Of a stretch of 64,000 nt of DNA, positions 4,940-56,031 are shown one piece after another. Source of the stretch: Raja brachyura (lineage: Eukaryota); assembly GCA_963514005.1 (NCBI GenBank), contig OY740812.1, positions 2,728,001-2,792,000 of the forward strand. Direction: 5' to 3'. The notes under the pieces are model-generated. The model was not told the DNA's origin and ran no database searches. It worked only from the letters and a program-made list of their open reading frames with translations. A program made the position numbers and the translations under genes. Position 1 is the stretch's first letter; each line of letters begins with the position of its first letter.

Positions 4940-4969
4940 CAATGTTTCGGGTCGAGACCCTTCTTCAGA
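4940..4969 (-). ncRNA. Minimal hammerhead ribozyme motif with altered cleavage triplet
   Basis: Minus strand CTGAAGA-A-GGGTC-TC-GACCC-GAAAC-ATT. Confidence 0.6.
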
Positions 4970-5166
4970 TTGATGTCGGGGTAGGGGGGGGGGAAGAAAG
5001 GAAGAGGTGGAGACAGTAGGCCAGATTACACCCTAGCGGTATGAACATTGACCTCCAATTTCAGGTAGTCCTTGCTTTCTCCCTCCTTCCCAGCTCTCCC
5101 ACAAGCCTACTGTCTCCACTTCTTCCTTTCTTCCCCCCACCCCCCCCCCCCCCCCCCGACATCAGT

Positions 5167-5196
5167 CTGAAGAAGGGTCTCGACCCAAAACGTCGC
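5167..5196 (+). ncRNA. Minimal hammerhead ribozyme motif, degenerate (GAAA>AAAA)
   Basis: CTGAAGA-A-GGGTC-TC-GACCC-AAAAC-GTC. Confidence 0.6.
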
Positions 5197-7974: not shown

Positions 7975-8648
7975 AGCTTCAAAGCAGGAGCCTAATCAAC
8001 AGCATGAAAGCTGTAATATTAACACAGCCACCCAAAGGCCATTCAGCCCAGCTTTCAGAAAGTCATCCATGAGGAAAAGGAGAGAATAACTTACTTTGTT
8101 AGGAATTCTTATTACACACAGCTGCCTCACTTTACTTGGGTGAGAATGAGAATGGGAAATGATGTCTCTATTGAAGGCTTGGTCCTGTTAATGTCCGTGT
8201 GCTTGAACCCATTCAACTCTTCGACACTGCATTTAGAACTGCCATGAAACTCTGGTGCCATGTAATAGTCACCACCCGTTGTGTTTGCCAGTTTACTTCC
8301 AAACTTAGAAATGCCTCAGGAAAAGAGTGGTTCTGCTGGATCTTGTTCGCAGCAACACTAATTAAAGAATTGATGAGTGCAATGGAGGCATTCCCCAGGA
8401 AGATTAGTTGACAACCCGCACTAGATCATTATCACGCATTGTCCAGTGATGGACTCAAGAGCTTATGTGTTAAAAGCTGGAGCCTGAAAACCAGCATTCT
8501 TGGTGTAATATGAACACGACTGCCCTAAGGCCATTCCACCCACCTTTCAAAAAGAAATTCATGAGAAAAAGGAGAAAATAACTTTCTTTGTTTGCAATTC
8601 TTACTCCGCACAGCTGCCTAACTTTACTTGGTGAGAATGGGGAATAAT
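7975..8648. repeat. Diverged local direct duplication of ~180 bp (about 7975-8160 and 8470-8648)
   Basis: Shared blocks GGAGCCT, TGTAATAT, AAGGCCATTC, AAAAGGAGA, AATTCTTA, CACAGCTGCCT, ACTTTACTTGG, TGAGAATG. Confidence 0.8.
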
Positions 8649-8761
8649 AAATTCTGCCGGAAATAATTAGCTCCAAATATTAGCCTACAACAAATTGCAT
8701 TTCAACAGAAGAACAAATTGATAGGCTCATCACAGTAATATTCCTACTCTGCACACAGTAA

Positions 8762-9090
8762 AGGGCCTGTCCCACTTACGCAATTTTGTTCGGCGACTGC
8801 CGGCACCCATCATAGTCGCAGCAGGTGGCCGAAATATTTCAACATGTTGAAAATCCAGCGGCGACCAGAAAAAGGTACGACTCTTTGAACGACTACTCAC
8901 GGCCATACAGGCATCACCCCGTGACATGTCGACGCGTGACGCCTGTATGGTCTTGAGTATTCGCCCAAAGAGTCGTACCTTTTTCTGGTCGCCGCTGGAT
9001 TTTCAACATGTTGACATTTTTCGGCCACCTGCTGCGACTATGACGGGTGCCGGCAGTCACCGAAAAAATTGCGTGCGTGGGACAGGCCCT
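8762..9090. mobile_element. Palindromic MITE (fold-back), termini AGGGCCTGTCCCAC...GTGGGACAGGCCCT; possibly PIF/Harbinger- or Kolobok-related
   Basis: Two ~155-bp arms are near reverse complements around a short spacer; CpG-rich; TSD not clean. Confidence 0.8.
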
Positions 9091-11904
9091 TTTGAATCGT
9101 AAGTCAAATCCAACATGATTATAGCAATGCCTTGAACATCTGCTTCCCTCATCCTCCCAATTTATTAACAGGAATATCATAAACTATCAGGTTTAACGGA
9201 TTATTTACATCTAGTTAAAGCAGCGACCTGTTCACAAATGACTCGGATCCATCTGCAAACCCAGATAAATCTAGCAGGTATTTTGGAAACTAAACAATGC
9301 AATAAAAAACACACCATTTTCCATTTGAGGGCTGGAGAGATTGGAGCAGAAATCCGCTGGGGATGACTAGCATTTGACTGGGCTTGGAGTCAGGGTTGTC
9401 TAACTATCTTGATCATTTTTGTTTACAGATTGGGCAAACGTCTGATCCCTACACAAATGATCATTATTTCTGAGTAAAAACAGGGATGAACACATCTGTG
9501 AACGTGGACAAGTTGCAGCAGTGAAAATAAATAAAAAGCTTGTCATTGCTTTTTTTAAAATTTATATTCACTACCGGAAGGTGAGCTACCTCTAGGAAGG
9601 GTAAGAGAGTCAGAACAAAGGCTGCTTTACTTCCCAACATTTTTCCTCCCTCCTTCAAATATAAAATCAACATGACTGTAAGTAGTAGACCAGGCGGCAA
9701 ATTGGCTAACTGAAACCGAGCACCAAACCTCTGAATAGGCAGCATTTTGGTGTTCCAAAATGTGCACTGCTTGGGTAGAAGCATCAGGAAAATGTATACA
9801 TGGTCAGATAAAGTCAGAATTATCAATGGAATCAATTGCTTCACACTCTCTGGTTTTGGTTCGAACCATGCCAAATGCGCCAGAAAGCGATGTTGTCCTG
9901 TCAGCAGGTTTTAAACCTTGTCACCACAACCATTTGGATGGTGTTTCAAGAGTTATATAACACAATTAAACTTAAATGTTAAGCTACCATGGGTATAAAG
10001 TGTTTAAAGAGTGATGATTGTATGTTACCAAACTACTGGAATGGGCTGTAAATGCTTGGTTTGCCAACAATCCACGTCCCATAAAGTGGATGAAACCAAC
10101 AGCCAAGTATTTAATGATCACATGTATAAAATGAACATATAGAAAAGCCCAAACTTATACTAAAATAACCAAAAACATCATACCAACTAACACCATGACC
10201 GCATACCTCCCTAAATGTGAGCGCTGGGAAATCTATTGAACATTTCACCAAATTTCATCCAAGGGAACTAGGTTACAATTGGTATCAAATAAGCGTGAAA
10301 TAAAGTACACCACAGACATAAATGAACAGACTTTGAGATTATAAACTGCACAGAGTTTATAAGAAAAATAAATCCATTTAGCAACAGTTGCATAGCCAAT
10401 CGATGAGGTTTGATGAGTACATCGTCTATGTTCTTACTTTTTGAAGGACAAATTAGCAGATGTGGCACAGATACATTGCAAAGATTAAAAAAGTTAAAGA
10501 ATGAGGCAGAGAAAAAGAAAAGAGTGAAAGAAAAAGCAAAAAGAGATGAACGAAACAGTGACAAGTATCATAGAGATGCATAAATACAGCATTATTTAAA
10601 TAAAATGAGAAAGATACAAGAATACAAGTCAAAACTATGGAGAAGGAATGTCCAGGTACAATAGCCAGAGAGAAAAATGCAGGCAAATAAACAAAAGCAG
10701 AACAATGGGTAAATACAAAGAGGTTTACATATGGTGGCAGATTATTTACTTTAATCAGGACAATTACAATTCAAAGGTTTGATATGAATAAAAATTATGC
10801 TTCCTTACTTTATAATTCTACAGATTAAGTTGAGCTGCCTTAGAGGAATCAATCTGCAAAGCTGCTGCATGAGGAATGTGTGTGTTTGGTGAAAGGAAGG
10901 TCAAAACCTGTCAGGTCTCATTCGAGTGGGATTCCAAGTTTGCACTTTATCATCTTAAAGTATGATAATGCAAGTTTAGTAAAATCCCTATACCTTTTTA
11001 CGTCATGGCTCCTTCCAAAAGTTTCAATTCATAGAACTAGACATTGACAATGGGACAGCATAAACAGAATGGAAGAGTTTAAAACTAAGTGTGTGAAGGA
11101 AAGTGTGCACCAAAATGTTCTTCCCCACTCCCCAGATAGTGACCGACCTGCTCTCCATTTACATCATTTCCTGTTATTTTTGTTCAAGTTTTTAATTACA
11201 CATTTAAAATATATTTATTGAATTATTATGTCCACCTTTTGGAAATACTTTAATAAAATATTGTGATCTCCATCAGGATTTTTTTTTTTTTTTGAACAAA
11301 GATCAAGATCCATCTTAAGTAGCCAGAATTCAAGCCCCAGTTGCTATAACTTGGACTTTTTTTTTGTTCAGCCATGTTACTCTGAACAAAATAAAATAAT
11401 TTTCCCTCGCCCTTTCTTGGGTAAAAATGGAACAGGATTTTTGTTCTGCCAAAGCTATTCTAACCAATGCTTGGTGAAATGCAATAACATCCTTGTGCCA
11501 GCACGTCTTGCAAACATTAAAGATAAGATCAAAGGGATAGTCTTGATTTTTTTTGCAGGGCAAATTCTATGAGACTCTCACTGAGACTCAAGTGCAATGT
11601 CCCACAGAATCTATACCTTTAAACAGAATCCTCAAACAGAGAATTCCTAATCTTGCGAAAAATGTCTTCGGTACAGACGCAAGAGAGGATGTTAGGCACA
11701 AAAAAAAAATTGGAGGCAAAGATTTCACGTATGCATAAAGCAGTTTGTTAAAGAGCAATGTTGGCAGACGCTGTGGACCCAGGTTGCCTGCCTGCCCACC
11801 CTCTTGCAAAAACCTGAAGTAGATAAGAGAAAAAGTCCATTTTAACTGAAAGATACAAAAGAATACGTACCCTAAACTACTTCGGGAGCTCTCTGGTGAC
11901 CTAC

Positions 11905-21458: not shown

Positions 21459-22458
21459 CTGTAAAGAGGCATATTTTTTAAATACAATTAGCTAATCAAT
21501 AAAGGCAATAAACACAAGCTCGCATCCTAACCCAAAAATGGAATAAAATAATAAATCATGACATGATCCCTTTAAAATCAATTTATTCTAACACGCACAA
21601 ACAAATTATAAATCAAGAGCAAACTGCAGTCTTGCTTGCCTCTTCCATGAACTATTTCATTATTTTTGTGTCAACATATTCTTACTAATCAAACTTGGAA
21701 TATACCCGATTCTCACTATAACCCATCAATAACTGTCCGTATGGTCTGGGGTTAAATCAACAGCATTGTACCAAAATAACTAAAAATCTACTCAGAAGAA
21801 CTTAGTTGTTGGCTAAATAGTTTAAAATTTGAGGATTTTTTGTTTTAATGATGGAAGAGAAAAGGAAGTCTAGTCAGTCATACATCTATCAGAATTATTA
21901 GATAGATCATCTATTTTTTTTAATGGAATTTGCATGACATGGTTCCTTGCCCATCTCATCCTTCCTGATTTCTGAAGGGATGTGGGGGAAACCCAGCCCC
22001 CTATCCCACCAAATGTCAAAAACAGCCTGATCATTCACAAGGTTTGATGCTGAAACAAATGCTTCTGCACCCACCATCAATGACCATAGCTACTGACTAC
22101 TTAGCTTTGATTAGCCTGAAAATATTGCTTGCAATTTTATTGTACAAACATGTTAAACATTTGCAACAATTCTCAGCGATTTTAAAAGGAGTTGTAACCC
22201 ATTTAATTCTAAATGGATTATTTCTTCCATTCCAAAATAGGTGATGGAGAACTGTTATGTAATTATGTCAAACATTTGCATTTTTATCTCTCAGGCACTT
22301 ATTTCTAGGCTAATGAAGAAAAAAAGAGGCAAGATAAAATCCAAAGTGTTTTAACGCAGCCTGTTATCTTAATTTTAAAGCGTGCCACTTTTATGGCAAT
22401 ATTATATATTTTTAACTAAAAAATAATAATATTTAATTGTGAAAGTTCTTAAATGTCA

Positions 22459-24042
22459 CAGTGCCTTCCATAATGTTTGGGACAAAGACCCATCATTTAT
22501 TTATTTGCGTCTGTACTCCTCAATTTGAAATTTGTAATAGGAAAGAAATCACGTGGTCAAAGTGCACATTGTCAGATTTTAAAAGGCCATTTTTATACAT
22601 TTTGGTTTCACCATATAAATACAGGTGTTTATACCTAGTCCCCCCATTTTAGAGCACCATGTTTGGGACACATGGCTTCACAGGTATTTGTAATTGCTCA
22701 GGTGTGTTTAATTGCCTCCTTCATGCAGGTATAAGAGCTCTCAGCACCAAGTCTTTCCTGCAGTCTTTCCATCACCTTTGGAAACTTTTATTGCTGTTTA
22801 TCAACATGAGGACCAAAGTTGTGCCAATGAAAGTCAAAGAAGCCATTATGAGACTGAGAAACAAGAATAAAACTGTTAGAGACATCAGCGAAACCTTAGG
22901 CTTACCAAAATCAACTGTTTGGAACATCATTAAAAAAGAGAGCACAGGTGAGCTTACTAATTGCAAAGGGACTAGCAGGCCAAGGAAGACCTCCACAGCT
23001 GATGACAGAATAATTCACTCTATAATAAAGAAAATTGCCCAAACACCTGTCCGACAGATCAGAAACACTCTTTAGGAGTCAGGTGTGGATTTGTCAATGA
23101 CCACTGTCCGTAGAAGCTTTATGAACAGAAATACAGAGGCTACACTGCAAGATGCAAACCACTGGTTAGCTGCAAAAATAGGATGGCCAGGTTACAGTTT
23201 GCCAAGAAGTACTTAAAAGAGCAACCACAGTTCTGGAAAAAGGTCTTGTGGACAGATGAGACAAAGATTAACTTATATCAGAGTGATGGCAAGAGCAAAG
23301 TATGGAGGAGAGAAGGAACTGCCCAAGATCCAAAACATACCACCTCATCTGTGAAACACGGTGGTGGGGGTGTTACGGCCTGGGCATCTATGGCTGCTGA
23401 AGGTTCTGGCTCACTTATCTTCATTGATGATACAACTGCTGATGGTGGTAGCATAATTAATTCTGAAGTGTATAGACACATCTGCTCAAGTTCAAACAAA
23501 TGCCTCAAAATTCATTGGCCGGCGGTTCATTCTACAGCAAGACAATGATCCCAAACATACTGCTAAAGCAACAAAGGATTTTTTCAAAGCTCAAAAATAG
23601 TCAATTCTTGAATGGCCAAGTCAATTACCCAATCTGAAACCTATTGAGCATGCCTTTTATATGCTGAAGAGAAAACTGAAGGGAACTAGCCCCCTAAACA
23701 AGCATAAGCTAAACATGGCTGCAACAACTGGTGATATCCATGAATTGCAGACTTCAAGCAGTCATCGTATGCAAAGGATATGCAACAAAATACTAAACAC
23801 AACTTCTTTCAATTACATGGCATTGCTGTGTCCCAAACATTGTGGTGCCCTGAAATGGGGGGGACTATGTATAAACACTGCTATAGTTTCTACAGGGTGA
23901 AACTAAAATGTATAAAAATGGCTTTTATTAAAATCTGACTTTAACCACATATGTTTTTTTCTATTACAAATCCAAAATTGTGGTGTACAGAGGTAGATAA
24001 ATAAATGATCGGTCTTTGTCCCAAACATTATGGAGGGCACTG
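22459..24042 (+). mobile_element. Tc1-like IR/DR DNA transposon, full length, transposase disrupted
   Basis: ~210-bp TIRs CAGTGCCYTCCATAATGTTTGGGAC with an inner direct repeat; TA on the right, CA on the left; HTH region plus WTDETK, QQDNDPKH and PIE catalytic segments; stops and frameshifts. Confidence 0.95.
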
Positions 24043-25539
24043 TATGGTTCAAAATGTTTTCTTGTTTAAAATTCTGTAAAAACAACAGCCAAGGAAAATG
24101 GAAAGAATTGTAACTTGACCTTGAAGGGTTTATTTTTTTCCTCAGCCCTCTGCCATGACTTGCAGATATACTCAGAGTTGTTATGAACTCCTGCACAAGG
24201 CCTGATGCAACTGGGCCCACCTACGTGAAGTAGGACATGAAGATCTTATTATGAAACTTTCAGGTTCAAGTATCTCATCATATATCCTGATGCCCACATG
24301 CCTGGACTATGTAAACATGTGATAAGGTCAAGGGGATGATTTGTGCTTTTTCTTTCATACAATTTTGCATTGTAATAGACTGCAAAATAGTTTCTGTAAC
24401 CTTGCCAGATCTAAAGAACACTGACATCAAGATTAATGATCCGGAAACATAATTTTCTTATGTACTCTGCAGAAATGCACATAATGATTACAAATTAATT
24501 CTACTCCCTTCTGCACCCCTCCTGCTTCCTTGTCCCAACTCTAGAATCACTCGCAAGATGCTGCATAACTTAAGGTAGTGGACAAAGGGGGTTTGTGAAT
24601 GAACACGGCTTGGAGCCTGCAGCCATGGTTTACATAAAAGCACGGCACCAGTCTAGCAATGCATGCAAAAGCTACCGTAATAGAATCGTGTTTTGAGTTG
24701 TTGATTCTTTCTCCTACAAACCCTATAAAACATTAAAGTTTTAAAACTGATAACAATACAAGACATTTCAATTCTGACCCAATATGGTGAAATTTAATTG
24801 TTTCATTAATATAATTAAATATTTTTAATTATTTTATAATTCCACTTCTATTAATAATGCTGCAGTTTGAGTATGATCATGAAATAACTGATGGCATTAA
24901 TGCTGCCTTGTAAAATGTGACAAGAATGCAGAAAAGCAGTCAGTGGTTGTTAGTATTAGAGGAGAGATTTCAATCTTCACGTTTTAATAAGGCTTCAAAT
25001 GTACCGTAAACATTTGTATTGCAACAATTTTGTATTGCAACAAAAGCTTTTCACTGTACCTCGGTACTAAACTAAACTGTATTTCTTTCATAATATCCAA
25101 GCACTTATTAAATTTCAGCGGGTGATCACCTCCTGGTATCCCTTGCTCACATCTTCCCTGTCCCCCCCCACCCCCCCCAAAAAAAAGACACACTTAATCA
25201 GAGCACAAAACTTGTGCTCTGATGTGGAGCAGCTGAATAGCTGGAATCTCGGTTCTTACAGGTGTAATAAATTTACACCTACTATCAAATTATGTAAAGA
25301 AATATACACTCAAAACTCTGGAAAAAAACAATAGGATTAAATGGAAAGAAAAAAGACAGGTTAATACTGCAGGGATAAGCCCTTCATCAGAATGCAGTCC
25401 TGGTGAACCACTTACACCCCATAGATTAAGTTGCTTTTTTTCCACTCTACAGTGAGAGATTGCCCCACACATGTAGTTCCAGAATTTTCTGTATTTGCAC
25501 TCTTTCATTTGACCTTTTATGTCGTAAGAATGAAAAAGA

Positions 25540-27850: not shown

Positions 27851-29287
27851 ATCTATGTCCTCCAGGTGCTGCTGTGACATGCTCCCTGTAGTGCATCTCC
27901 CCTAAATATGCTTACATCTCTCTATTGTGCTGAAACATTTATATTCTTCATTATAATGACGAACCAGGGATTTATTCCCATTTGAAAAAATATCTGCCAG
28001 AGATCCGAGTGTTTTATCTCATGTTAAAGGATTAATGGATGGAAGGGACATGAAGCAAAGCATTCAGGAAGAGTATAAACCCCACATTCCAAGTTTATAT
28101 TTTCATTCTAAATTCTTGTGTCTCCATTTACTTTTTATATATTATTTACATGCTTCCTCTTGTGATATTGCTACATGAACTCAATGCTGTTACAGGGCAT
28201 CTTTGGAATGCAGAATGAAAAAAAATTGACCGCAAGTAGACCAAGGTAGCTGGTATTTTATTAATTGTGTTTTTTTTTGGCTGTGCATTGTATCCCTGCA
28301 TAAAACAAACCCAACTTTTAGTTTGAACAGCAAAGATACTCTACTTAGTTAATGGTTCAGTCCAGTACCATGACTTGCTTGAGGGGCATCAACAGAATCA
28401 TGATACAGCAGCCAAGAAAAATATTCTTCAAAGCTTTCCATTCAGTTTAAGCAATATCACAGAAATGGGGGTGACTTTTAGTTCCACTGAGCAACAATAA
28501 TGTCGCTATTTAATCTCCCATATGTGGATCCATTTAACCCCATCCACAGAGATGATTTAACAGGCAAAGCTTAATAGTACCTCCAATGCAGCACTGACTC
28601 AATTAGTGATCATAGACTTCAAAAAACTCAGATATGTGTTGTCAGAATAGTTAAACCTATTATTAATTGGCTGCTTTTTGTCTTTAGCATCCTACTTTCC
28701 AGGCTGTGAGATAGCTAATTAATATTTCAGCAAGCGCACCAATTTGGCAGAGGAAATAATTGATGAGAAAAATGTAATAATGTCTGAAAAACTATCGTCC
28801 AAATTAAATTCCCCATCACAAGCTCCATATCTCAATTTAATTAATTACATGAATGTTACACAGTAGAATGCACTGTCAGATTGTTTCCAAAACGGTTGAA
28901 AGACGGCGGCTTGCACCATTTTGGGAGATTTGGCCTGAAGAATAGCTGAACAAAATAACTAATTAGTAGGATAAACCCACTAAATCTGCTGCATATCTAT
29001 CTGGGACATCAAAACATTGCACTGTATCCCTGGGCCAGGAATTTAATCAGGATTATTATATCCAATTGCTATTTAGGGAGTTTTACTGGGAAGTACATAA
29101 CAATGCTGACTGGAAGATCCTAATTTCCGGTACAATCCCAGTATCAATAATTTTGCAAGCAGACCAGATTGTCTTCATTACCTTGGCCAACAGAACAACC
29201 AGTTATGAACTGCTAGGGCTGTTGCTGCCCACTGAATTGAAGAGAGAAAACAAATTACATGGATAATTAGCTTAAAAATTAACTAAA

Positions 29288-29608
29288 GTTTAGTTTAGTT
29301 TTGAGATATAGCATGAAACAGGCCCTTCGGCCCACCAAGCCCACATTAACCATCAATCTCATATTCACACTAGTTCTACATTATCCCACTTTCCCAATCA
29401 TATCTTGCATACAAGATGAACATTTAACAGAGGCTGATTAATCTACTAACCCACACCTCTTTACAATGTGCCAAGAAATCTGAGCACCTAGAGGAAACCC
29501 ATGTGGTCGCAGGGAGAACATGCAAACTCCACACAGGCAGCATCCACAATCAGGATTGAACCTGGGCTGTCTAAACTGTGAGGCAGCAGCTCTATCGCTG
29601 TGCCGCCC
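29288..29608 (-). mobile_element. V-SINE (HE1-like)
   Basis: Reverse complement of the same head, V-domain and tail; (CTAAA)n tail. Confidence 0.82.
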
Positions 29609-29822
29609 AGGTAGAAAGTCATTAAAAAATATTAATGCAAGCACATTCATTCCACTGAACAAAGTTAAATTATACAAAGCGTAGAAAAACTTTCTGAATA
29701 AATATTGTTCATTTGAAAAACTTTAAACCGATGTTGCAAAACATATGCTCATGGTTTGGTGTGGATTGCAGCAACAGACCATTACTGGTATCTCCAGAGA
29801 ACTTGAAAGAACGGAGGCTTAC

Positions 29823-29987
29823 CTCAATTGGATGGCTGCTGTCAAGGGCATCAAGTTCTAGTGCTCGTGTGTAGTCAACCGATACAAACTGGGTCCAGAT
29901 GTCATATTCTGGGAAGCAGTGATCAACACACAGATACTCAATCCACGAAGCAAAGCCTTCATTTAACCACAGATGCGTCCACCACTC
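29823..29987 (-). CDS. NPEPPS: NPEPPS-like exon 10 (EWWTHLWLNEGFASWIEYLCVDHCFPEYDIWTQFVSVDYTRALELDALDSSHPIE), third zinc ligand
   Basis: 165 nt; tgcag/gtaagc; WLNEGFA motif; ORF 29709..29993. Confidence 0.98.
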
Positions 29988-30588
29988 CTGCAATCACAGA
30001 TATGGTATTTGAATACACTTGCTTACATTTAAAATACAGCTCAAGTTTTAAGTAACCTTTCCAAAGAAAATATGGCCACAAATTGCTTCCAATTTTGCAT
30101 CCAAGACATGACTTTTGCGGGGTTTGTTTTGCTCAAATTTGAGTTTGTGCCCAAGTCACATTTTCTTTAAAAACAAGACTTGGACTCTTGCAGAAAGTAT
30201 TTTAAAATTACTGAAAACTTTCCATGCTCTTAAAACATGGAAAACAAAGCTGCCAGCAACTATCTAAGCCTGCATGCTGTTCTCCCCTGCTGGGAAATTC
30301 ACAGCCCATAAAATAGCATGCATCTGGTTGGCTGTAATCTATGGATGAGTATTTCAGACCAACAGTGGTGGATGCCTTGTGCCACTCAGAACAAATCTGC
30401 TAAACCAATATTTACTGGCCTTGACATGCATATTCATTTTAGACCATAAGCAATACATTTGTGGATTTTCCAATGTTGTTCCGGGAACCTGCTGTTTAGC
30501 TTCTCTGCACAATTAATTGAGGCCATATTCCCTTTCATCCCAATCACACAATGCCCAGATTGGTAAAGGCCAATACTCATTGATTCAC

Positions 30589-30805
30589 CATTGTCCTTGC
30601 ATATTCTTGTTTTGAACACAATGTGATCATTATTTTCCAATTGCTGATGTACTCTAAATAATTCAACCATGAATTTGTCCACCACTGCTGCAGTCACAGA
30701 TATTGCACTTGGAACACATTTGCTTGCATTTAAAATGCAGCACACATTTTAAGTAATCTTTCCAAATATAATATTATGGCCACAAAACTCTTCCAATTTT
30801 CCATC
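30589..30805 (-). pseudogene. Degenerate duplicate of the intron-9 3' end and exon-10 start (candidate pseudo-exon 30589-30687)
   Basis: About 30660-30805 aligns by eye to about 29960-30100. Reads QWWTNSWLN versus EWWTHLWLN after an intact tgcAG. Confidence 0.75.
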
Positions 30806-32259
30806 TATCCACTCCAAATAATTTTTTTTTTCCACTATGACCATTTCCAGAACTGCACACATTCTAAAATGCCTTCCTCACCTCTGACAACATGCTCGAC
30901 CACTTATTTTTCTCTAAATAAAATTAGCCAAAATGACTGCCTTTGCATCCCTCTGAACTATTGACAGAAATGCAAGTTTATCTTAACTTCAATGTTTGAT
31001 GGGCTTCAAGATACTGAGAGCTGGACATTTTTCCTTCTGATACTTTCTGCCCAGGGTGCACATGCCCAGGGTGTCTTTTGGTTCTAAAGTTAGAAAGAAT
31101 ATTTCGCTAAAGTCACTAGTTCTCCTCAGCCATCTCCAATTCTGCAAAAATGTGATCGTTCTATGATAATTCTTCAATATATTTCCTTCTTTCCTTCCAC
31201 ATTTCAGCATCTACGCACTGAAGCGAAGGGAAAGTCAGTGGCTATGTGCGAGAAAATAAACCGAGGGGCTTCAGGGGAAGAGGATAAAAAAGGAAAGAGA
31301 CTAATGGGGGCAACTGTATTTCATAGCAACATAGAAAACAGGTACAGGAGTAGGCTATTCGACCCTTTGAGACAGCACCGCCAATGGCTGATCATCCAAA
31401 ATCTGTACCCTGTTCCTGCTTTCTTCCCATTTCCCTTGATTCCGTTAAAAGCCTTAAGAGCTATATCTAACTTGAATACATCAGACCGGATGGGTTTATA
31501 GCATCTTTCCAAGTCAGTTCTCAAAGGATTAAGAGATCGACAAAAGCAATGCTCCCCATCCATAATTAAGTGATCCAAAAATAATCCTATTTGGATTTCA
31601 GTCAATCTGTCAACATTGACAAATCTAATTGTTGATCTATACATGGTGCAACCTGGCAACTCTTAACATCTTGACTCTACAAACATTAAGAGACTAGATG
31701 AAATAAGATTAAAAAGGACTCGACTACAACTTGAATCCAATTTCTGGAACTGATAAATGAATTTGGAAAGTGAGCTGCAGCAGGTTTGAGAGAGGGGCAC
31801 TGCACCAAACTTGCTTCACCGCACCACCCTGCAGTGAGGAACAAAGCCTTGAAAACAAGTAGCACTCGTCAAGATTTAGAGGATCTCAGTTGTTCCTTGT
31901 AATGGCCAATTCATATAAGCAAGTGCAAACCAAAAAAAGGAGCATCTGTATGAACAGATGAAGACATACACAGAATATTTATATTTGCTTTTGCCCTCAA
32001 TGCCTTCTATCACGTCTAATAAAGACAATTGATTTTTTGGCAAACTGTAAAAAGTCTCAAAAATAAAACTATTTCTTCCCTCTTTGACTATAGTTATATG
32101 ATAGATGAAAGCATATAACAACTGTCATTTGATTAGCCATCAGGATATCAAATATGCCAGTAAAATAAATGACACCGGAAGTTAAAAAAATTCAAGTGGA
32201 AATCTCAGTCTTACAAAAGGAAAATGTAAAATCGAGAAAAACTATCCACAATTTAAAGT

Positions 32260-32745
32260 CAGTGCCATATAGTAGAGAAACAGGGTGTTGGCCCAACTAT
32301 ACCATGCCAACCAAGATGCCCCATCTACACTAGTCCCACCTTCCTGCGTTTGGCTCATATCCCTCTAAACCTTTCCTATCCATGTACCAGTCCAAATGTT
32401 TTACAAAGTTGTTACAGTACCTGCTTCAACTACTCCTCTGGAAACTTTTTCCAAGTACCCACCACTCCCTCTTTGTGGAAAACGCTGTCCCTCAGGTTCT
32501 TATTAAATCTTTCCATTCTCATCTGAAACTTTTGTCCTCCGGTTGTCCTACTATGGGTAAAAGACACCTCTATAAGATCCCTCAGCCTCCCTGGCTCCAA
32601 GAAATAAAGTCCTAGCTTGCCTAACCTCTCAATAGCTCAGGCCCACAAGTCTTGGCAACATCCTCGTAAGTCTTCCCAGCACTCTTTCCAACTTTGTGAA
32701 ATGCTTCGTATAGCAGGGTGACAAAAACTGAACACAATACTCCAA
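32260..32745 (-). mobile_element. CR1 LINE 3' fragment
   Basis: Same family as 26658-27530. Confidence 0.8.
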
Positions 32746-34974
32746 TTAACCCATTTTTGTTTGAAAGCAAAAAAGCTGAAAACATCAATGGTCTGACAGC
32801 ATCTGTGGAAGAAAAACTTTCAGGTCAAAGGCTCTTTATTCAGAACTGGGAAAAGTGATAAAATATAATACATTTCAGATTTTTTTTTGTTTCAGCTTGC
32901 TTTACTGAAAACAACACAATAACCCGAGAGTTAGTAAAGCCGAGGACTGCTTCCATTAATGGCTAGGCAATTTCATGATATTCCACATCAATAAACAAGT
33001 CAACTATTAAGCATCGAGTGGGAGATCAAATCCAATTGCAAATTCTGCATTAAGTATAAATCACATAAAAGTGAAATATTCGTTTTTGGTGGTGGAGCAG
33101 GAGTGCGAGGAGAATATGGAGGAGGACACACAAATTATTGAAAAATTATATCCCGACAGCACCACATTTTGGGATTTAATGGTAATGTACAAGGGCACGA
33201 AAAGGAAAAAAGCAGCCAAACAAAAGTCCATAAGCGAACAAAAAGAAAAGGACATGAAAATAATTCTGAAAGCTTAGTCTCACAAAGAGAAGTCTATCAA
33301 CAACAGCCATTGAGAGGCAGACAAATCTGCACTGCCAGCCAAGTTTAGTTTCTACTTGGCCTAAATTGTTTTTCCAAGTCATCACTCACATTTTTACTGC
33401 AGATGCACACAGCCAAGCATTCTAACACTGTCAGAGTGGCTACAGATAAAATAGCACTGCATAAATTCTGTAGTTATTAAAGTGTAAACCAAACCTAAAA
33501 ATGCTTCTGTTCAGCAGCTTAAAGTCTCAGACAGACACAAAGGCAGCTGGAATTTATAAAATCAGTTACATCATGCAGCATGTAACTTATCGCTGGAATT
33601 CAGACCAGACAATGGGATTTAAAGCAAGAAAAGACAGCGACTAGCATCACAGTTGACAAGAAGAATCAGACTTGTATTAAATAAATAAATGGATAACACA
33701 AGCACACCAGGTGGTAGTAGCCCATCATGCCTGCCCCACCATTTAATATGATCATGGCTTATCTAAGGAGGTCTCAACTACAATGTAATTTCTCTATTTC
33801 CTTATGTTCCTTGATCGATCAAATGTTAATCCACATCCACGCTAAATACTTCTATTGAGGCAGCTTCCACCAGGGCAAAGAATTCAAGAGATTCACCACT
33901 CGCTAGACGAAGAAATTTCTACCCATCTCAGTTTTAAATGACAGGCCTTTGTCATGGTTAGATTCAACATTCCAGACTATCCTACTGGGAAAACATCCCA
34001 ACACCTACTCTATTCAGTACTGTTCAGCTTATATATTTGATTAAGGTCACCCTCATTCTTCAAAACTCCAAGGAATATAGGCCTGAACTATTTGGTCTTT
34101 CTTTGGTGGACTACCCTCTCATACCAGGAATTAACCTGGTGAATTTCCTTTGGAGCATCACCAAAGGATCTTTTTTTTTTTAAAGATTATCTTCCCCCTA
34201 CTCCTACAGCACTGCAGCAACTCGCCCACTAGAGCCAAGCTAGGATACTGTCCGATTCACCACTACCTCATTATGGACATTGGACTTTGTCTCTGGAACT
34301 GGAACTATACAATGCTGAGAATTATATTTGGCACCTGTAATCTTTCTTTTTGTTCTACCTATTGTACTCGAATTTGGCTCTATTGTTTTCATGTATAGTA
34401 TTATCTGATTTGATTGGATAGCATGCATACCAAAGTTTCTCACTGTCCCTCGATACACACGACAATAATAAACCTAAACCTATCCATTCGGGCCACTGCT
34501 CTGAAGCCAATTATTTTTATTTCTCTCATTACCCTCTTAACTTTCAGCAAATGATGTTGCCTTTCCCTGTAACTCAGCCACTGCCCTTCTTGACTCTGTC
34601 ACGCCTCCCATTTTTCGATTCTGAAGGCACTTGCCCTGCCCGCCGTACTAAACTATGTACCACATCTCTAACTTAACCATCTCACTCCCCTGCTATCCAG
34701 CAAGGCTAGACTCCCTCGTGACTACCCCAGCTACACCATCTCCCTCTTTGCATTCTCTTAAAGATCATCAATTTTTGCTTCCTGACAACAATCAGAATTA
34801 TCCCATCTTGTACTTTCACTAACTCCCAGAAGAGGCTTTCCAAAACTCTTCAGACAATATTCTGCCCGATTTAAAAATAGAGTACATGATTATTTTTATT
34901 TGGTCAGGTATCATTTGAAATGTACATCCTATTATTAACCAAGGGAAAACAGATGGCATACAATTATGTCAAGA

Positions 34975-35420
34975 GGAAAGATTGAAAAGACTAGGCTTGT
35001 ATTCACTGGAGTTTAGAAGGACGAGGGGGGGGGGGGGGGGAACTTATAGAAACATATAAAATTGTAAAAGGACTGGACAAGCTAGATGCAGAAAAAATGT
35101 TCCCAATGTTGGGCGAGTCCAGAACCAGGGGCCACAGTCTTAGAATAAAGGGGAGGCCATTTAGGACGGTGAGAAAAAACTTTTTCACCCAGAGAGTTGT
35201 GAATTTATGGAATTCTCTGCCACAGAGGGCAGTGGAGGCCAAGTCACTGGATGGATTTAAGAGAGAGTTAGATAGAGCTCAAGTGGCTAGCGGCTATTGG
35301 AGTCAAAGGATATGGGGAGAAGGCAGGCACGGGTTATTGATAGGGGACGATCAGCTAAGATCACAATGAAGGGCCGAATGGCCTCCTCCTGCACCTATTT
35401 TCTGTTTCTAAGTTTCTATT
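34975..35420 (+). mobile_element. CR1 LINE 3' fragment, young-looking
   Basis: ORF 35097..35369 (FFTQRVVNLWNSLPQRAVEA). Confidence 0.9.
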
Positions 35421-35959
35421 TCAAAAATGAATACATCTGTAACTGATTCTCCAACTGCTGAATTTATTACAATTACACTATTGCAGGGAAATATCAAGAC
35501 TCCAGCTGCTGTTTTAATTTAATGGCTCAATACAAATTCATATCTTCAATAATGGGACATAACCCACAAAAATAGGCAGGAAAGCCATCAGACACAAATG
35601 GAGACACGGGCCAATATGGCAATCACCTGCTCGATGCTCCATAGGTACTTGGGGACTTGAACAGAGTGTAAATGAAACCTGCTCTTTGCAAGTAAAAGTC
35701 TCGCTATCAACAGCCATTACAAATATGGATAGACAACATAGTATTGTAGAAAAACCTGTCCTGCCAGCCAGCTAAAAATGAGATAAGGGTAACTTTACAG
35801 CTCTCAAAAAAGATAAAAATGAAGTTTTAAAAGCTATATTATTTTTTAAAGTTATATTTTGTACTTTGGACTTTCCTCCGTAATGTTGAAATACTTCACA
35901 TAACCAGCAAATGAGATTGGAGTTTGGAAAAACTGAAAGGTCAAATTTATCTTCAAATA

Positions 35960-36880
35960 AATCTGCAAAGTGTGAATTAAAGGTACAAATAATAGCAAAT
36001 GGATCTAATTTAATTGCTTTTATTAAAGAAACATGTTTGCATGGTGATCAAACTTGTGAACTAAATATCCTAGGGCATTTGACGTTTAGGTAGGTCAGGT
36101 CGGGGGAAGTTCCCCCCGCCACGGGTACCATGTAACCCCGTGCTACCCGCTCCATGGTCACCTGGTTTGCCAGGTGAGGAGGGGGCTGTGGACCCCCAGC
36201 AGGACCAAAAACAAGACCTGTCAAAGGGCAGATGAGCTTCTAGCGAGCCAACGGCCATCCACACTTCAGTAAAAGTTGCGATCACTGTCGTACATAGCCA
36301 TGTAAGGAATGATGATAAAGCACACACACCAAAATCCTACACTGCCAGCGGTGGAAGTCCGCAGGAACTGGAGGACAGAGATGTGTGGTGCGTCCGTCAA
36401 CGTTCCCGGTGGAAACCAGCACCACTGCGTCGCTAATATTTTCAACGATGATGATGATCTAGGTTAAAAGTAAAAAGATGTGGAGAATGCTGCTACAAAG
36501 GGACAGAAAGGACCTTGGCTTAGGAGGCTCTTCTTCAGAATTAGAATCACTTTTGATGTAGTTATAGAGTAGCAGGGGCAGAAAGCATTGACTAGAGTTG
36601 TTCATAGATCTCCAAATAGTAGTTGTGATGAAGGGTTTCATATACACGTGCAAATTAAATGCATGTGCAACACGGATAATACAGTAAATCACGGGGAACT
36701 TTAATTTACATGCAGATTGAACAAACCAAATTGTATTATGAAATAACTTCTGGAACATGTACAAAATTAATTTCTAGGTCGGTCTGTTGAGGAATTGATG
36801 AGGGAACAGCCGATTTTAGATCTTGTTCTGACCACCAAAAGGTAATTTAATACTTTTTGTAAAAGGGAACCCTAGGAAAG
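35960..36880 (+). mobile_element. Old CR1 endonuclease-domain remnant, split by the 36091-36458 insert
   Basis: DLIAxxET-like...ELNIxGxLTFR; later GDFN-like (GNFN) and ILDLVL remnants. Confidence 0.6.
36091..36458 (+). mobile_element. Short GC-rich structured retroposon, probably an RTE-derived non-autonomous element, (GAT)n tail
   Basis: Several hairpins in the 5' half; LEDRDVW-like 3' segment; GATGATGATGAT tail; interrupts a CR1 remnant. Confidence 0.6.
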
Positions 36881-37297
36881 AATGCAAAGTTCTAACAAAT
36901 TATTATGGTCACTAAGACCACAGCTCACTGTGAGTTGAGAATTCCAAAGATTCTCAGCCCTCAGTGAAGAAATTCCTCTTCAACTTATTCTGATTCTATG
37001 AATGCTGCCCCTTATTCTTAAAATATAAGCCTGAATAACAAACTTTTAGTCTGTCTTCGTGAAAAGCTCAAAAAACTTGCCAAAAACACAAAATATTGTA
37101 GCAGGAATTGGACATTTAGCATTTCAAACTTGCGCCACCAATCAATAATACCAACTGAACCTCTATTTCAATACTATATTCCTGCTTCCTCCCCATATTC
37201 TTCCATATCCTTTGTACACAGAAATTTAGCTACCTCAAATATATTTAGCAAATCGGCACTCACAGAAAACAGGGGAGTACAGTCCTGTTAGCCAACA

Positions 37298-37456
37298 GGG
37301 TAACGTTTTGGGTTGAAACCCTTCTCCAGACTGAAGGGTCTCGGCCAGAAACGTCACCCATTCCTTCTCTCCAAAGATGCTGCCTCACCCGCTGAGTTAC
37401 TCCAGCGTTTTGTCTACCTTCGATTTGAACCAGCATCTGCAGTTCTTTCTTACACA
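37298..37456. mobile_element. Penelope-derived unit with inverted 5' piece
   Basis: ...CCCTTCTCCAGA|CTGAAGGGTCTCGGCCAGAAACGTCACCC... Confidence 0.72.
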
Positions 37457-40282
37457 CCTGTATGCCTATTAGTGGCCAGCTCTCCATGATCCCATGTGAT
37501 CTAACTTCCAGGTTATCCTACCATACAAGACCTTGCCAGAGTCTAGGTAGCCAAGTCTATTGCCTACATTCGTCAATTCTCTTCATCACCACTTCAGAAT
37601 ATTCAAATTTGAGATAATTTTCAATGCATGAATATACTTAATCAGAATATCAGAATAATGCTGAATATCCCTAATCAATCCTTGCTTTTCCAAATGCAGG
37701 TAGTTTCAGTCTCAGAATCCCCTCCAGTGTCTCAGAATCCCCTCCCTTACCTGGAATTCCATAACATGAGCTTGCATCCCATCTTAAAGAAAGGCACTAC
37801 ATTAGCCACCATCTGGTCTTTTGCTCCCTCACCTATACTAAAGATGATGCAAATATTTCTGCCAGACCCCTGTAATTTCTTTCCTAGCTTCCCACAAAGT
37901 ACAAAGTTGATCAGGCCTTGTGATTGATCCATTTTAATTTACCTTAAGACCCATTGGGCCTCCTATTTTGTAATGTGGATATGTTCTAATCAAAGGAATA
38001 GAAGAGAAGCAAACATGTCTTTTCTTACTACAACTAAATGGGGCAATTTGGCTCCAGACCCAAGATCATTGCACACAATTTTGGTCTCCTTACCCAAATA
38101 GAGATATGTGCAATGAAGGCAAGAGTTCATCAGAATGCTTCTTGCCTGGTGGGGATGTTACATGTGGAGAGGTGAAATTGTCTGGGACTATTTTTCAGAG
38201 TATAGAAGATCTCACTGAAACTAACAAATTTGTACAGCGCTCAACTATGCAGACTCAGGGAGGATGATTCGCTGGCTGAAGTGACAAAACCAAGTTGTGT
38301 CATGTCACACACACTCTCCTCTCTTCCTCCGTTTCCCCCTCCCCCATTCAGTTCCATCTGCTCATCCCCTACATAAACACACACATCTTCTGGCAATCCT
38401 TTCATTCCCCCCAAACGGTTACTTAACAGATTCTGCATCTACAGCTACTTATTTCTATTTCTCACCTTCCAACCTCCCTTTTCTCATCCCGCCTGCCTCT
38501 TTTTTCGACTTCATTCTCCATCTATCACCCAGCATTTTATTGACTCCACCGCTCCTGCTCCTTGTCTATTACCTCTCCTCCCCTGGTTCCACTCATCACC
38601 TGCCTGCCCCTGCCTCTCATCTGTTTTCCCCCTCTACATGCTTGAACTGCTGAGCTCCTCCAGCAGTTTGATTTTCTTGTTCCAGATTCTAGCATCTGCA
38701 GTCTCTTGTGTCTCCAGCCTACATGTGTGAGCTTTGAAATAAATATACAAATAAGGAGAAGCTGTGTTTTGGATTGAAATTTTAATGAAGCTGAAATCCA
38801 AACCACAAGTATGTGGTGTGGGCACCGTGACCAGAGTTAAAAAGTCCTTCTACAATGGAATACATATGGACTTGATTAAACAGCATTCATATTTTCAGTT
38901 TCAAAGTAAATGCTACTTTGGAAAAGATGCAAATGAATGATCAGTTTCATCAACACCAATCAGGATGTTATCAAATCCATTTCATTAGGTTATAATCTCT
39001 CCTAATTTTACACATACATCATGTTTGCTCTTCTACACATTTTCAGAGGGGACCAACACAAGGGTAGCAATGGTATTTTCAGGCTGACCACTAGCTACTT
39101 GGCTATGAAGTGCATGCAAGATGACTAGTGGTGTCAGTAGAGTACTTAGCTACAGTAAACATGCCGGCAGGATTTCTTTCAAAGGAGAGTTCAACAGACT
39201 GCCGAAAACATCTATACCCGTATTTAGATAATAAAATGACACCACTATATAAACTGTACAAAAATCTGAACAGACTGCTGACTCAGCAGTAACTTAACCA
39301 GATAACCTTTGCTAGACCTTGCAAATATTGTGCTCTGGCAAGGTAATGAAAATTGACAGTACCTTCAACCTGAAAAATTTAACTTTGTTTCTCTTCACAC
39401 AGAAATGACCTGACCTGCTGAGTATTTTCACATTTACAGTTTTTGTTTCATTCTGACAGGGCAACTAACTCAACCATAACACATGCAGCCAGCAACTCTA
39501 TCAGTGGTGTTCACACAAATATCGGCAGAAATGGTGTTTCATGGGTCAACAGATAAGACACTGCTTCACATGTAGACAGCATGCAGGTGTGGGTGCAAGC
39601 ACGAGAGTTCTCTCATTGGATTCAGCTCACCGGCACATAAATTATGAATGTCTTCCATATTGAAGAATAGATCTAGAATTTCAGCAAAACAAGACATCAA
39701 AACACAGCTTCTCTTGCAAGATCCTGGCTGACATCACCATAGCAGCTTGGGAAATAGTTACACCCAGGAGCTTAGATACAGCTACAAATTGCAATATATA
39801 TCCTGAGAAAATAAGTCATAAATTACAATATATATATAATATGTAATATACACCTCAAGAAAATTAGGAGGGACAATAGTTGACCTACTCTCTTCCTTGC
39901 CTGGGTGGAGTAAATGGTTTCAATTAGGAGTTCCAGGATGAAATAAAGTTACATTTTTCATAAACATAGCAAAAGAAAGACAATTTTTTTGTCAGATACA
40001 AAGCATACAATTCAAATGGTGCTGAATATAAGTTAACAAACATCATTAGAATCAAGCATCAAATCTATTGAAAATTGCAGTGCTTTATTTAACCCACCTT
40101 CTCCAACTTCCATTACATTTCAAGTCTGAATGACTTTGATTTAAAATACAATGATTCACTGGTGCACGGAAATCCTGAGAAGCAAGCAAGCCTTTGCCTG
40201 GAGACAGGTCTCTTGTCTAAAGCAGAACAAGCTGAGTTTTCACAAATGCACTCTCTTTATTTTCCAAAGATTAGAATATTAC

Positions 40283-40397
40283 CATAGTGACGAGGTTTCC
40301 AAACCACTGATGAGCAAGCTCATGGCCGACTACCAAAGCAACCCACTGTTTTGATGATGAGCAGGAATTTTTTGGATCAATCAAGAGGGCTGTTTCT
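40283..40397 (-). CDS. NPEPPS: NPEPPS-like exon 9 ([38 protein letters not shown]), HEXXH zinc motif
   Basis: 115 nt; cccag/gtaata; [13 protein letters not shown]. Confidence 0.98.
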
Positions 40398-43014
40398 CTG
40401 GGGAAAAGAACAGTAAGTGATACATTTCAGTAAATAAGGATTGCATCTCAAAAGGTATATATTATTTTTACACATTTGTTTGTGGGATTTGAGGTATAAA
40501 GAGTAGGCTAATATTTAACGCCAATCATTGTGTCAAATGTTTGCTGGATTATTTCAGAGGGCAGTTAGGAGTATTTTCTTGTGGATATGGATCACATAAC
40601 ACGGTATTGGGAAGAAATAATGGAAACGTCAAAAAGGTATGATCCTATTCAAAGAGAATTTTAATATACATGGACCAGGAAAATTAGTTTGGCAGGGCTA
40701 ATTGAGACGAGACTCTTGGCACAGTACTCTTTCGACTCTTAGCTCTTGGTTATACTGAACCCAATATTGTAACCTCATTCTAACCCCAATATTGATCCAA
40801 TACCACACTATAGTCTCATGCCCATTAATTGTCCCTGGAGCAATTTTCTAATTGATGCTGTCTTCGCTGCAGAAAGATTTGATGAATAGTGAACACCATA
40901 ATACACATTTGCACTGAACATTAAGTTACACAAAGATCATATCCCACCAATTTAACCTTATCTATAACGAATATTATGCGGATCCAAGTTAGAGCAATAA
41001 AGGCAATTAGTTCAATTACTGATGAATAGATCAGATTCCAGCTTTGTGATCAATAAACTCAATTAGAGCTCAAGTACATATGCTACATCCAGCTTTGCAA
41101 ATGGGATGAAAATTCATGAAAGCTGCTCCCCACTAGACTGATGGGTTCATGGTCAGTTATTGGTATGACACGGCTCGTCAAGATTCATATCAGAATTGAA
41201 CACTAGCATGCCTTAGCTTGAATAAAAGTACATCTCTCACCAGGTGTCACTATCTCTCACCAGGTGTCACTGTCTTTGAAACTGATAACTACTTTGCTTG
41301 CCATTCAAGGTACAAATGATATATTAATCTAAAAAAAAAGTTGAAACCCAACCCACTAATAGCTTGCTAATGAAAATTGGTCAACACCAGAATTCATCCT
41401 GTTCTTTCTGCTCAGTTGCAGAACAGCAAAATAATTTCTTCCAACTTCAAATGACCTTTCACATTGTCCAAAAATGCCTCTGATATATATTAGAAGCTAG
41501 TTAACAGGTGCCCTACTTGAATGGCCATCTCTTCCTTACAAACATAAAGTTCATTCTCAAATTCAGACTTGCTAAAATAAATGTGATAATTCCAACACAG
41601 ATAGATTCACACCATGGTGCGCGGTTGTGCACCCGCACATCAAGCAAACGGGTGGCAGAAGCAAAACCTTATTTTCTTCACTGCATTATCAAACATCGAG
41701 GAGAGTATTTATAGGAAGACAATCAGGATAGTTGGGTGTTTTCTTCAGAGAGTGAGGTGGGGGTGGGGGAGGAAAACAAGAGAAAAGATGAAAAATACAT
41801 GTTAAAGTAAATATCTTTCAACATGAAGTGGTCAAATCAAAATGAAATTGAACTGAGAATGGCAAAAGCAACACATTTAAAAATAAGGAATCCAAGGAAA
41901 ACTAAACAAGAAATTAGTAGCAGTGGTAGTTCACCCGATCCTCGCCCTGCCAATCAACAATTGTAGTTATTTTACCCAAAGTCTCAACTCCACTTCTGTA
42001 CCAGTCCCCAATCTTTCAAAAAGGTATCTCCCACCTTTTTAAATACTTCCAATGATGTAGATTCCACAATCTTGCACAGTGGAGACATCCAGACATTCAC
42101 CATCTACAATAAATATTCTGATGCATCCATTTTAAATTATCTTATAACTATGTCCCTTTGATCGTAGCTCTCCCGTGAGTTGAATCATCGCGGAATCTAC
42201 TCTCAGGCCAGCTTAGGATTTTACATCTTTTAATACAATCATGCACAAATTGCTTCAACTCCAATGAGGTCAATTTATTTTTAGCTGTTTTTAATAGAGA
42301 AACCTCATTTGAGGAATTATCCTAGTGAATCTTTAGTGCCCTGCACCCAAAACGGGATCAAAACAGTACACCAACCCTCTGCACAATTTGCCTTCTCCAC
42401 TCCTAAACTGCAACCCCCTTACAATAAAGGACACTCTCTTCCAATGCACTGATCAAAAGATAGGAAAGGGGCATGGTAATTTTTCTCTGCAGCATGACAT
42501 GAAAGTCTTTTTGATGGACCATTCCCAGTTTACAGAACCCATGCCAGTAAGAGTGAAAGTATTTTTTTTTGCGCAAGGGAAATGGTGTTGCATCAGGTGA
42601 ATGATTGCAGGAGTTTACTGGTAAGCAAGCAAGATAAGACGATTAATTCTAAAAATAATAAGGGCTTATGAAATAAATAGTGCCAGATTTGTTTTTCCAA
42701 TTAATAATATGATAGTTAACAGAGCAGAATATTTCAGATCATAAAATTAAGTTGGAAAAAATTATTTAGAATCTGGAGGCTTTACTTATTCTTTACTTGT
42801 TCTTTACTTATATACTGAGGGACTCGGTGGTGGTATATGAAATAAGCTGCCAGAGGTGGTCGTTGAGGCAGGTACAATAACATTAAAAAGATACTTGGAC
42901 AGGTATATGGATTAGAGGGATAAATGCAGACAACTGGGACTAGCTTAGTTGGGGTATCCTGGTCGGCGTGGATGAATTGGGCCAAAGGGCCAGTTTTCAT
43001 GCTGTACAACTATG

Positions 43015-43775: not shown

Positions 43776-43979
43776 TCCTGCAGTTCCTTCCTACACATCA
43801 TAGTCATAGAGTCATACTGCATGGAAACTGTAGAATAGATTATTGTTAGCGAGGGGAAGCTGCCAACAAGGCATACAAAGTAATATTTAATCAGCAGAGC
43901 AGTCAAACCAGACAGAGAACTAGGATAGGGGAAGGGATGGAGAGGGAAAACAAGGGTTACTTGAAATTAGAGAAGTCAA

Positions 43980-45762
43980 AATTTGAGATTTGTAATAGAA
44001 AAAAGCACATGTGGTTAAAGTGCACATTGTCAGATTTTAATCAAGGCAACTTTTATACATTTTGTTTTTACCATGCAGATATTACAGCAGTGTTTATACA
44101 TAGTCCCCCCATTTCAGGGCACCATAATGTTTGGGACACAGCAATGTCATGTAAATGAAAGTAGACATGTTTATTATTTTGTTGCATATTCTTTGCATGC
44201 AATGACTGCTTGAAGTCTGCGACTCATGGACATCACCAGTTGCTGGGTGTCTTCTCTGATGACAGGCCTGTTTTGCAGCAATCTTTAGCTTATGCTTGTT
44301 TTGAGGGCTAGTCCAGTTTTCTCTTCAGCATATAAAAGGCATGGTCTATTGGGTTCAGGTCGGGTGATTGACTTGGCCACTCACGAATTGACCGTTTTTT
44401 GCAGCTTTGATAAACTCCTTTGTTGCTTTAGCAGTATGGTTGGGATCATTGTCTTGCTGTAGAATGAACCGCAGGCCAATGAGTTTTGAGGCTTTTGTTC
44501 AAACTTGAGCAGATGTGTCTATACACTTCAGAATTCATTATGCTCCTACCATCAGCAGTTGTATCATCAATGAAGATAAGTGAGCCAGTACCTTCAGCAG
44601 CCATACATGCCCAGGCCATAACACCCCCACCACCGTGTTTCACAGATGAGGTGGTATGCTTTGGATCTTGGGCAGTTCCTTCACTCCTTTGCTCTTGCCA
44701 TCACTCTGATATAAGTTAATCTTTGTCTCATCTGACCACAAGCACTTTTTCCAGAACTGTGGTTGTTCTTTTAAGTACTTCTTGGCAAACTGTAACCCGG
44801 CCATCCTATTTTTGCGGTTAACCAGTGGTTTGCATCTTGCAGTGTAGCCTCTGTATTTCTGTTCATGAAGTCTTCTGCTGACAGTGGTCATTGACAAATC
44901 CACACCTGACTCCTGAAGAATGTTTCCGATCTGTCGGCCAGGTGTTTGGGGATTTTCCTTTATTATAGAGAGAATTCTTCTGTCATCAGCTGTGGAGGTC
45001 TTCCTTGGCCTGCTAGTCCCTTTGATATTAGTAAGCTCATCGGTGCTTTCTTTCTTCTTAATGATGTTCCAAACAGTTGATTTTGGTAACCCAAAGGTTT
45101 GGCTGATATCTCTAACAGTTTTATTCTTGTTTCTCAGTCTCATAATGGCTTCTTTGACTTTCATTGGAACGACTTTGGTCCTCATGTTGATAAACAGCAA
45201 TAAAAATTTCCAAAGGTGATGGAAAGACTAGATGCTGAGAGCTCTCTTATAGCTGCATTAAGGAGGCAATTAAACAATCCTGAGCAATTACAAACACCTG
45301 TGAAGCCATAGGTCCCAAACATTATGGTGCCTTGAAATGGGAGGACTATGTATAAACACAGCTGTAATTTCTACCTGGTGAAACCAAAATGTATTAAAAT
45401 AATGTAGATTGGCATGTAAACAGGAGTCATACACACTATGTGATCCAAAGTCATTTCTAATCAGCATATAGACTTTAACAGCATAGAGGATGGTTCGTTG
45501 TCAGAACATCCTAACTGCTGCTCGAACTGAGCAGTGCAGGAAGTAAGTGTTAGTATAAACGTTACAGTGGGGTGGGGTTAGTGATGCTAACTTATATATG
45601 ATTGGTTGACATGCATAACCAATCTACAAATACCCTTTAATATAATCTGACAATGTGTACTCTACCCACATGTGATTTTAATATTGCACATCTCAAATTG
45701 TGGAGTACAGAGGCAAATAAATAAATGATGGGTCTTTGTCCCAAACATTATGGAGGGCACTG
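43980..45762 (-). mobile_element. Second copy of the same Tc1 family, inverted; one TIR end truncated, the other carries a ~270-bp insert
   Basis: ORFs 44640..45200 and 44446..44643 closely match copy 1; terminal GGAGGGCACTG followed by TA at 45762. Confidence 0.93.
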
Positions 45763-45907
45763 TAGATTAAATGGAGTTCATTAACGTATTTGATAAGGTT
45801 TCACTTGTGAGATCAGTTTTCCCCATTCCTTCTCTCCAGTGATGCTGCCTGTTCCGCTGAGTACCTCCAGCTTTGTCTATCTCTGACTATGATAATGGGT
45901 GAATCAA

Positions 45908-55693: not shown

Positions 55694-55829
55694 ATTTCTT
55701 ATAATCCAATTGATTTCAATATTTTATTTCTAGATTTATTAATTAAAACCAGTTGGTCCTTTTTTCTTCTACTACTCGTCACTTGGCTCATGAGATAGAC
55801 ATACATGAAGCAAACAGTAGTATTTACCA

Positions 55830-56031
55830 CTGATAGACACAAGGTGCTGGAGTAACGCAGCAGCACAGGCAGCATCTCTGGAGGAAAAGGATAAGTGATA
55901 TTTCGGATCAGGACTGACAATTAACTAAAACCTGTCATTTTTCGACAGAAATGCTGCCTGACCCGCTGAGTTACTCCAGCACCGAGTCCATCTTTGGTAT
56001 ATACAAGCATCTGCAGTTCTTTGGCTCTACT
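55830..56031. mobile_element. Inverted pair of Penelope-derived units next to the exon-5 donor
   Basis: Flanked by a 14-bp near-direct repeat AGTAGT(AT/CC)TTACCA. Confidence 0.75.

Follow-up and report, generated by a model that had tools for sequence, protein, structure and literature searches.

Intron 9 of the puromycin-sensitive aminopeptidase gene (NPEPPS) of Raja brachyura carries an insertion, marked by a target-site duplication and by junction microhomology, that duplicates the boundary between the intron and exon 10. The copied acceptor stands ahead of a donor-like site, and the two delimit a candidate exon within the region of the gene that encodes the zinc-binding motif. Judged from its sequence features, the arrangement is very probably a neutral relic of a templated insertion, which the spliceosome would skip. 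Positions below refer to the window, the whole 64,000-nt stretch of DNA that was analysed, and the features discussed are collected in Table 1.

Table 1. Features of NPEPPS intron 9, its boundaries and the inserted copy, in window positions.
Feature	Position	Strand	Remarks
NPEPPS exon 9 (HELAH)	40283..40399	-	5' end approximate, 3' end 40283
NPEPPS exon 10 (WLNEGF, third zinc ligand Glu)	29823..29987	-	
Source of the copy (intron-9 3' end and exon 10 start)	29961..30105	-	
Inserted copy, 147 nt	30664..30810	-	~118 nt of intron-9 3' end, first 24 nt of exon 10, ~5 unmatched nt at 5' end
Target-site duplication, upstream copy (AATTATTTGGAGT)	30811..30823	-	
Target-site duplication, downstream copy (AATTATTTAGAGT)	30651..30663	-	its first 3 nt, AAT, extend the source match (microhomology)
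Candidate phase 0-0 pseudo-exon, 99 nt	30589..30687	-	24 nt of copy and 75 nt of older intron sequence
Copied acceptor AG, decayed	30688..30689	-	G>C at +1 gave a CAGCAG tandem acceptor
Donor-like GT (ATG/GTGAAT)	30587..30588	-	part of older host sequence; score 6.37
TGA met on read-through past the donor	30577..30579	-	
Host intron segment with insertion-free form at G000:C21:12561682-12562511	30443..31113	.	

The host gene was identified as NPEPPS, an M1 peptidase and single-copy among 11 scored candidates, and skate proteins are the nearest matches to the protein encoded in the window. This protein contains both GAMEN and HEXXH-x18-E, the motifs by which membership of the M1 family is recognized. 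Zinc is described as bound by both His of HEXXH and by a Glu lying 18 residues further on (10.1101/2023.05.30.542994), a spacing kept in all 87 homologues that had both motifs; 121 homologues were compared, and the 34 without the upstream HEXXH, mostly fragments or gene models, were left out of the count. Exons 9 and 10, which carry the two parts of this motif, are separated by 10,295 nt of intron 9. At the real exon-10 acceptor (29988-30057) the pyrimidine tract is weak and yTnAy is not matched within 70 nt; organism C, one of the relatives compared below, differs there at position -8. KPNB1 lies on the same strand downstream, ~23 kb past the last exon of NPEPPS (G000:C34), and the 150 kb flanking NPEPPS contain several minisatellite-like arrays.

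An initial annotation had reported a diverged copy of the exon-10 acceptor 700 bp upstream of the exon, and had proposed an alignment of 30660-30805 with 29960-30105. Self-BLAST of the window returned this match (30661-30805 against 29961-30101, 80% identity over 145 columns, E 6e-29), with the copied and the real acceptor spaced exactly 700 nt apart (30687 and 29987), and all the coordinates in the annotation hold. Over the whole insert, 117 of 146 aligned columns are identical to the source (K2P 0.23), and the ~118 nt of copied acceptor context are 84% identical to the parent. The 13-mers on either side of the insert differ by one mismatch, and a 13-bp direct repeat of this kind was found around none of 20000 random intronic segments. 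These repeats, together with an empty-site paralogue on a second contig, C21, are additions to what had been noted before. An assembly artefact was rejected, as both copies sit on a single contig in all four relatives compared. Further copies of the insert or of 29988-30442 were not reported, in a search that was insensitive (the local 80% copy went unlisted too).

The empty site came from a genome search with the candidate exon, which returned one further match, on C21. That contig matches the window at 30443-30582, 30581-30663 and 30811-31113; it lacks the copied acceptor, and the 13-mer occurs on it once. Shorter paralogous contigs are also present in all four relatives. A SINE is interrupted by the C21 segment, with 5 bp duplicated, which identifies C21 as the recipient, and the sequence of the segment may be read most simply as a snapshot of intron 9 preceding the insertion. 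Recombination between the two 13-mers may alternatively have removed the insert from C21, which would alter the order of events and leave the insertion origin unchanged. Splicing-out of the insert from C21 was rejected because its ends are not GT..AG. So was the idea that the host segment is a multi-copy transposon, since its matches, counted as lower bounds, occur only at the window and C21, and terminal repeats were not seen. The material copied to C21, mid-SINE, amounts to ~520 nt of NPEPPS intron 9, and this copy later took a second SINE. The same intron-9 spot has thus figured in two templated insertions, having given sequence in one and taken it in the other.

The local source, the shared orientation, the short duplication and the microhomology indicate that the insertion probably arose in one event, by template switching in repair or replication. 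Synthesis at a staggered break or a stalled fork would have jumped to a template ~0.7 kb away on the same strand, copied the intron-9/exon-10 boundary, and come back via the AAT microhomology with 13 nt repeated; the copy would by chance have landed upstream of a cryptic in-frame donor. Locally templated insertions (TINS) of polymerase-theta end joining are described together with deletion (PMC13269935). The insert resembles them in copying nearby sequence (its source is 0.55-0.7 kb off and 80% identical today) and in the microhomology, AAT, at its 3' junction. Unlike TINS, it came with 13 bp duplicated and nothing lost relative to C21, it is long (147 nt), and its template is 0.55-0.7 kb distant.

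A different origin, which would be compatible with the relic reading and which we regard as possible though doubtful, is that nascent NPEPPS pre-mRNA was copied into its own intron, at a nick, by the endonuclease and reverse transcriptase of a retrotransposon, with priming at the AAT microhomology. The clean 13-bp duplication, the sense orientation and the unspliced sequence suit this account, as does the description of class 1 TSIPs as having target-site duplications, along with poly(A) and a TTTT/A site (PMC5110952). The insert is like a class 1 TSIP in being non-transposon, partly intronic sequence with a target-site duplication of at least 5 bp (here 13 bp, with one mismatch). However, poly(A), the poly(A) signal AATAAA and the TTTT/A site are all missing at both junctions, the empty-site sequence on C21 fits TTTT/A in neither orientation, the donor sequence is local and adjacent rather than distant, and the insert is common to five organisms rather than polymorphic. 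The event resembles a repair-templated insertion, but it lacks a defining feature of TINS and of class 1 TSIPs alike, and it is assigned to neither. The 264 kb around the gene hold 16 local, non-dispersed direct matches. In 13 of these the copies overlap or nearly adjoin, within four tandem arrays; the copies of the other three, including the insert, are separated. Another local direct duplicate lies in the intron before exon 15 (7978-8148 and 8470-8639, 80% over 171 nt, 492 nt apart), and no target-site duplication of at least 10 nt was found around it.

The candidate exon is stop-free on the minus strand and reads QWWTNSWLNYLEYISNWKIMITLCSKQEYARTM, with CAG ahead of it and GTGAAT after it. 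Its 99-nt open frame, the donor-like ATG/GTGAAT and the TGA beyond it, all described in the initial annotation, were confirmed in the window sequence. With the candidate placed between exons 9 and 10, the claim that inclusion would be in frame and would replace the third zinc-ligand Glu with Tyr was likewise borne out: Tyr falls at x18+1 and the Glu is shifted to x51. Inclusion would bring no premature stop in the window genome, where the candidate is in frame and open. The same codons are open on C21 up to ATG/GTGAAC, and no acceptor stands there. Because the donor and the open frame are found on the acceptor-less C21, both predate the acceptor, and selection is not required for either. A 104-codon stop-free stretch in another frame (30434-30748, minus strand) spans the insertion and gave no Pfam match. 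As to a coding fossil, no Pfam match above the cut-off was found in seven frames; as to an RNA gene, there was no Rfam match in 29000-41000.

The weight matrices used to score splice sites were built on a small set, 31 junctions out of the 33 resolved in NPEPPS and KPNB1 (two were dropped for poor protein match, and three others were unresolved). The donor scores 6.37, against 6.35 for the exon-9 donor and 9.23 for the exon-10 donor, which is mid-low in the real range and within the top 17 of the 616 GTs in intron 9. Its C21 homologue scores 3.66; the window donor is one base better. The copied acceptor scores 0.19 bits compared with 5.54 for its parent. It equals the weakest of the 31 real acceptors, and 238 of the 729 AGs in intron 9 score at least as high. 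Three of its four changes reduce the score, a drop that random changes produce 11% of the time (p 0.11). Scoring of the splice sites, a check put forward in the initial annotation, gives a respectable donor and an acceptor that has sunk to the lower limit of real sites. Intron 9 contains 76 AG-GT pairs that are no weaker at either end, nine of them in frame and open, and seven of these nine are unrelated to the candidate. A random insertion would be followed by an open in-frame donor this good at 2.3% of positions (5.1% with a laxer threshold), and by a donor in any frame at 26%.

Four related organisms, B to E, were compared using one run each of 21 listed, and all have the insertion. The substitution lists are complete for B (18/18) and C (32/32), and for D and E the comparison covers the substitutions listed, a minority of the total (98 lie outside the lists). 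The candidate is unchanged in B. In C, TCA has become TAA, an in-frame stop at codon 6 (on one contig, at depth 10, which may be an individual allele), and among the substitutions listed for the four relatives it is the only stop that inclusion would bring. Frame decay in relatives, which had been named in advance as counting against the exon, is therefore seen in one of the two organisms with complete lists, C, and not in B. The stop in C refutes a conserved protein isoform, and an unproductive-splicing exon remains compatible with it. D and E show one residue change in the candidate among the substitutions listed, and contig depth indicates three extra bases there, a repeat-unit difference at a position shared with C21. 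This 3-nt difference is the sole indel seen inside the candidate, and by depth no base is deleted in any of the four relatives. The window differs from D at 68 of ~1515 sites and from E at 76 of ~1503. Set against this 4.5-5% difference, the K2P of 0.23 between copy and source suggests an event several times older than the split from D and E.

In B and C together, where changes are few, real exon 10 has no changes where 4.4 were expected (p 0.012), the copied acceptor region has 3 against 3.15 expected, and the candidate exon has 1 against 2.6 (p 0.26). Compared with C21, the exon body differs at 7 of 83 sites and the flanks at 79 of 417 (Fisher p 0.025; fixed-window p 0.012; any-window p 0.32). 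All six coding differences from C21 are residue-changing, as are three of the five changed codons in the copy, and ~70% would be expected under neutrality. Neutral drift would retain the AG, the GT and the frame with rough odds of 0.2-0.3, and their survival is thus only mildly informative.

For the interpretation offered in the initial annotation, the arithmetic of inactivation stands, but it is that annotation's own fallback, a silent relic, that fits best: donor and frame predate the acceptor, and the acceptor has decayed. The real exon 10 would outcompete the copy by exon definition, and with donors of 9.2 and 6.4 bits for exon 10 and the candidate, the copy could be tolerated and drift. 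An intact AG and GT, a decent donor and a length that suits exon definition could nonetheless permit leaky, unselected inclusion in ~1-10% of transcripts, giving a little inactive protein, and decayed mRNA in C, to no function; the parent acceptor likewise does without a good pyrimidine tract or a yTnAy branch match within 70 nt. We consider such leakage unlikely, given an acceptor no stronger than the weakest real ones, the many equal decoys in intron 9, and the proteins in which exon 9 is joined directly to exon 10 (two isoforms from Amblyraja, one protein from Rhinoraja, and a Logan protein encoded on a 3.8-kb contig). An inclusion product was sought among proteins of 71-2000 aa, none of which shares three words with the candidate peptide, a weak result as rare isoforms are seldom annotated.

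That regulated inclusion reduces active NPEPPS, either by yielding a zinc-dead isoform or by way of decay, seems to us very unlikely, even though inclusion removes the third zinc ligand, the exon body has diverged less from C21 than the flanks, the geometry is only 2-5% likely by chance, and the stop in C would leave the outcome unproductive. Against it, the frame and donor are older than the acceptor, the acceptor has weakened rather than improved, its flank evolves at the intronic rate, synonymous bias is absent, organism C has a stop, and no product was found among proteins. We give the same slight credence to the idea that one repair insertion, by handing an acceptor to an existing cryptic donor, created a one-step, skate-lineage off-switch exon in the NPEPPS zinc motif. 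No better placed is its extension, in which the unproductive exon would have been kept, as a zinc-dead isoform in some species and a trigger of decay in others, with C21 as the pre-exon snapshot. Least probable of all is that the copied acceptor acts as a decoy, binding splicing factors without being ligated and delaying excision of the 10.3-kb intron 9, or serving by itself as an alternative 3' site, whereby exon 10 would gain 700 nt and run into a premature stop. The ~118 nt of acceptor context in the copy remain 84% identical to the parent, but the site, at 0.19, is no better than a third of intron-9 AGs, and changes in it build up at the intronic rate.

As a splicing object, and judged on its predicted sites, the candidate belongs to the pseudoexons. 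Silent intronic pseudoexons, with 50-200 nt from AG to GT, are described as roughly tenfold commoner than real exons (PMC1935003). The candidate is like them in its 99 nt between AG and GT and in having 76 equally strong pairs for company in intron 9, and unlike typical ones in that its acceptor derives from a duplicated real acceptor and its origin is traceable. Tandem exon duplication can yield alternative or mutually exclusive exons. As in such duplications, an acceptor and exon start have been duplicated upstream of the parent in the same phase, but only 27 of the 165 exon nt were copied, the donor was not, and there is no synonymous bias. A human skip of exons 10-17 (PMC2654914) is unrelated to the candidate. 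A literature search at the level of listings found no published report of the NPEPPS intron-9 insertion or of the candidate exon.

As a relic, the insertion matters little, being a tidy case of local templated insertion whose empty site survives. It could serve as a phylogenetic marker among skates, and would illustrate that an intact copy of a real acceptor is tolerable 700 nt upstream of a catalytic exon. Were regulated inclusion true, the origin of an inactivating exon would be dated, and would have come about in a single step, with the states before and after both recorded in one genome.

Other elements in the window include a 333-nt near-perfect palindrome (8760-9092), 90% self-complementary and MITE-like, and shorter palindromes at 4868-5267 and 55820-56004. 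Inverted termini mark an element at 22458-24043, 43977-45763 and 57231-57692, with a 1.4-kb inverted copy 87% identical and a shorter derivative; it resembles a non-autonomous DNA transposon.
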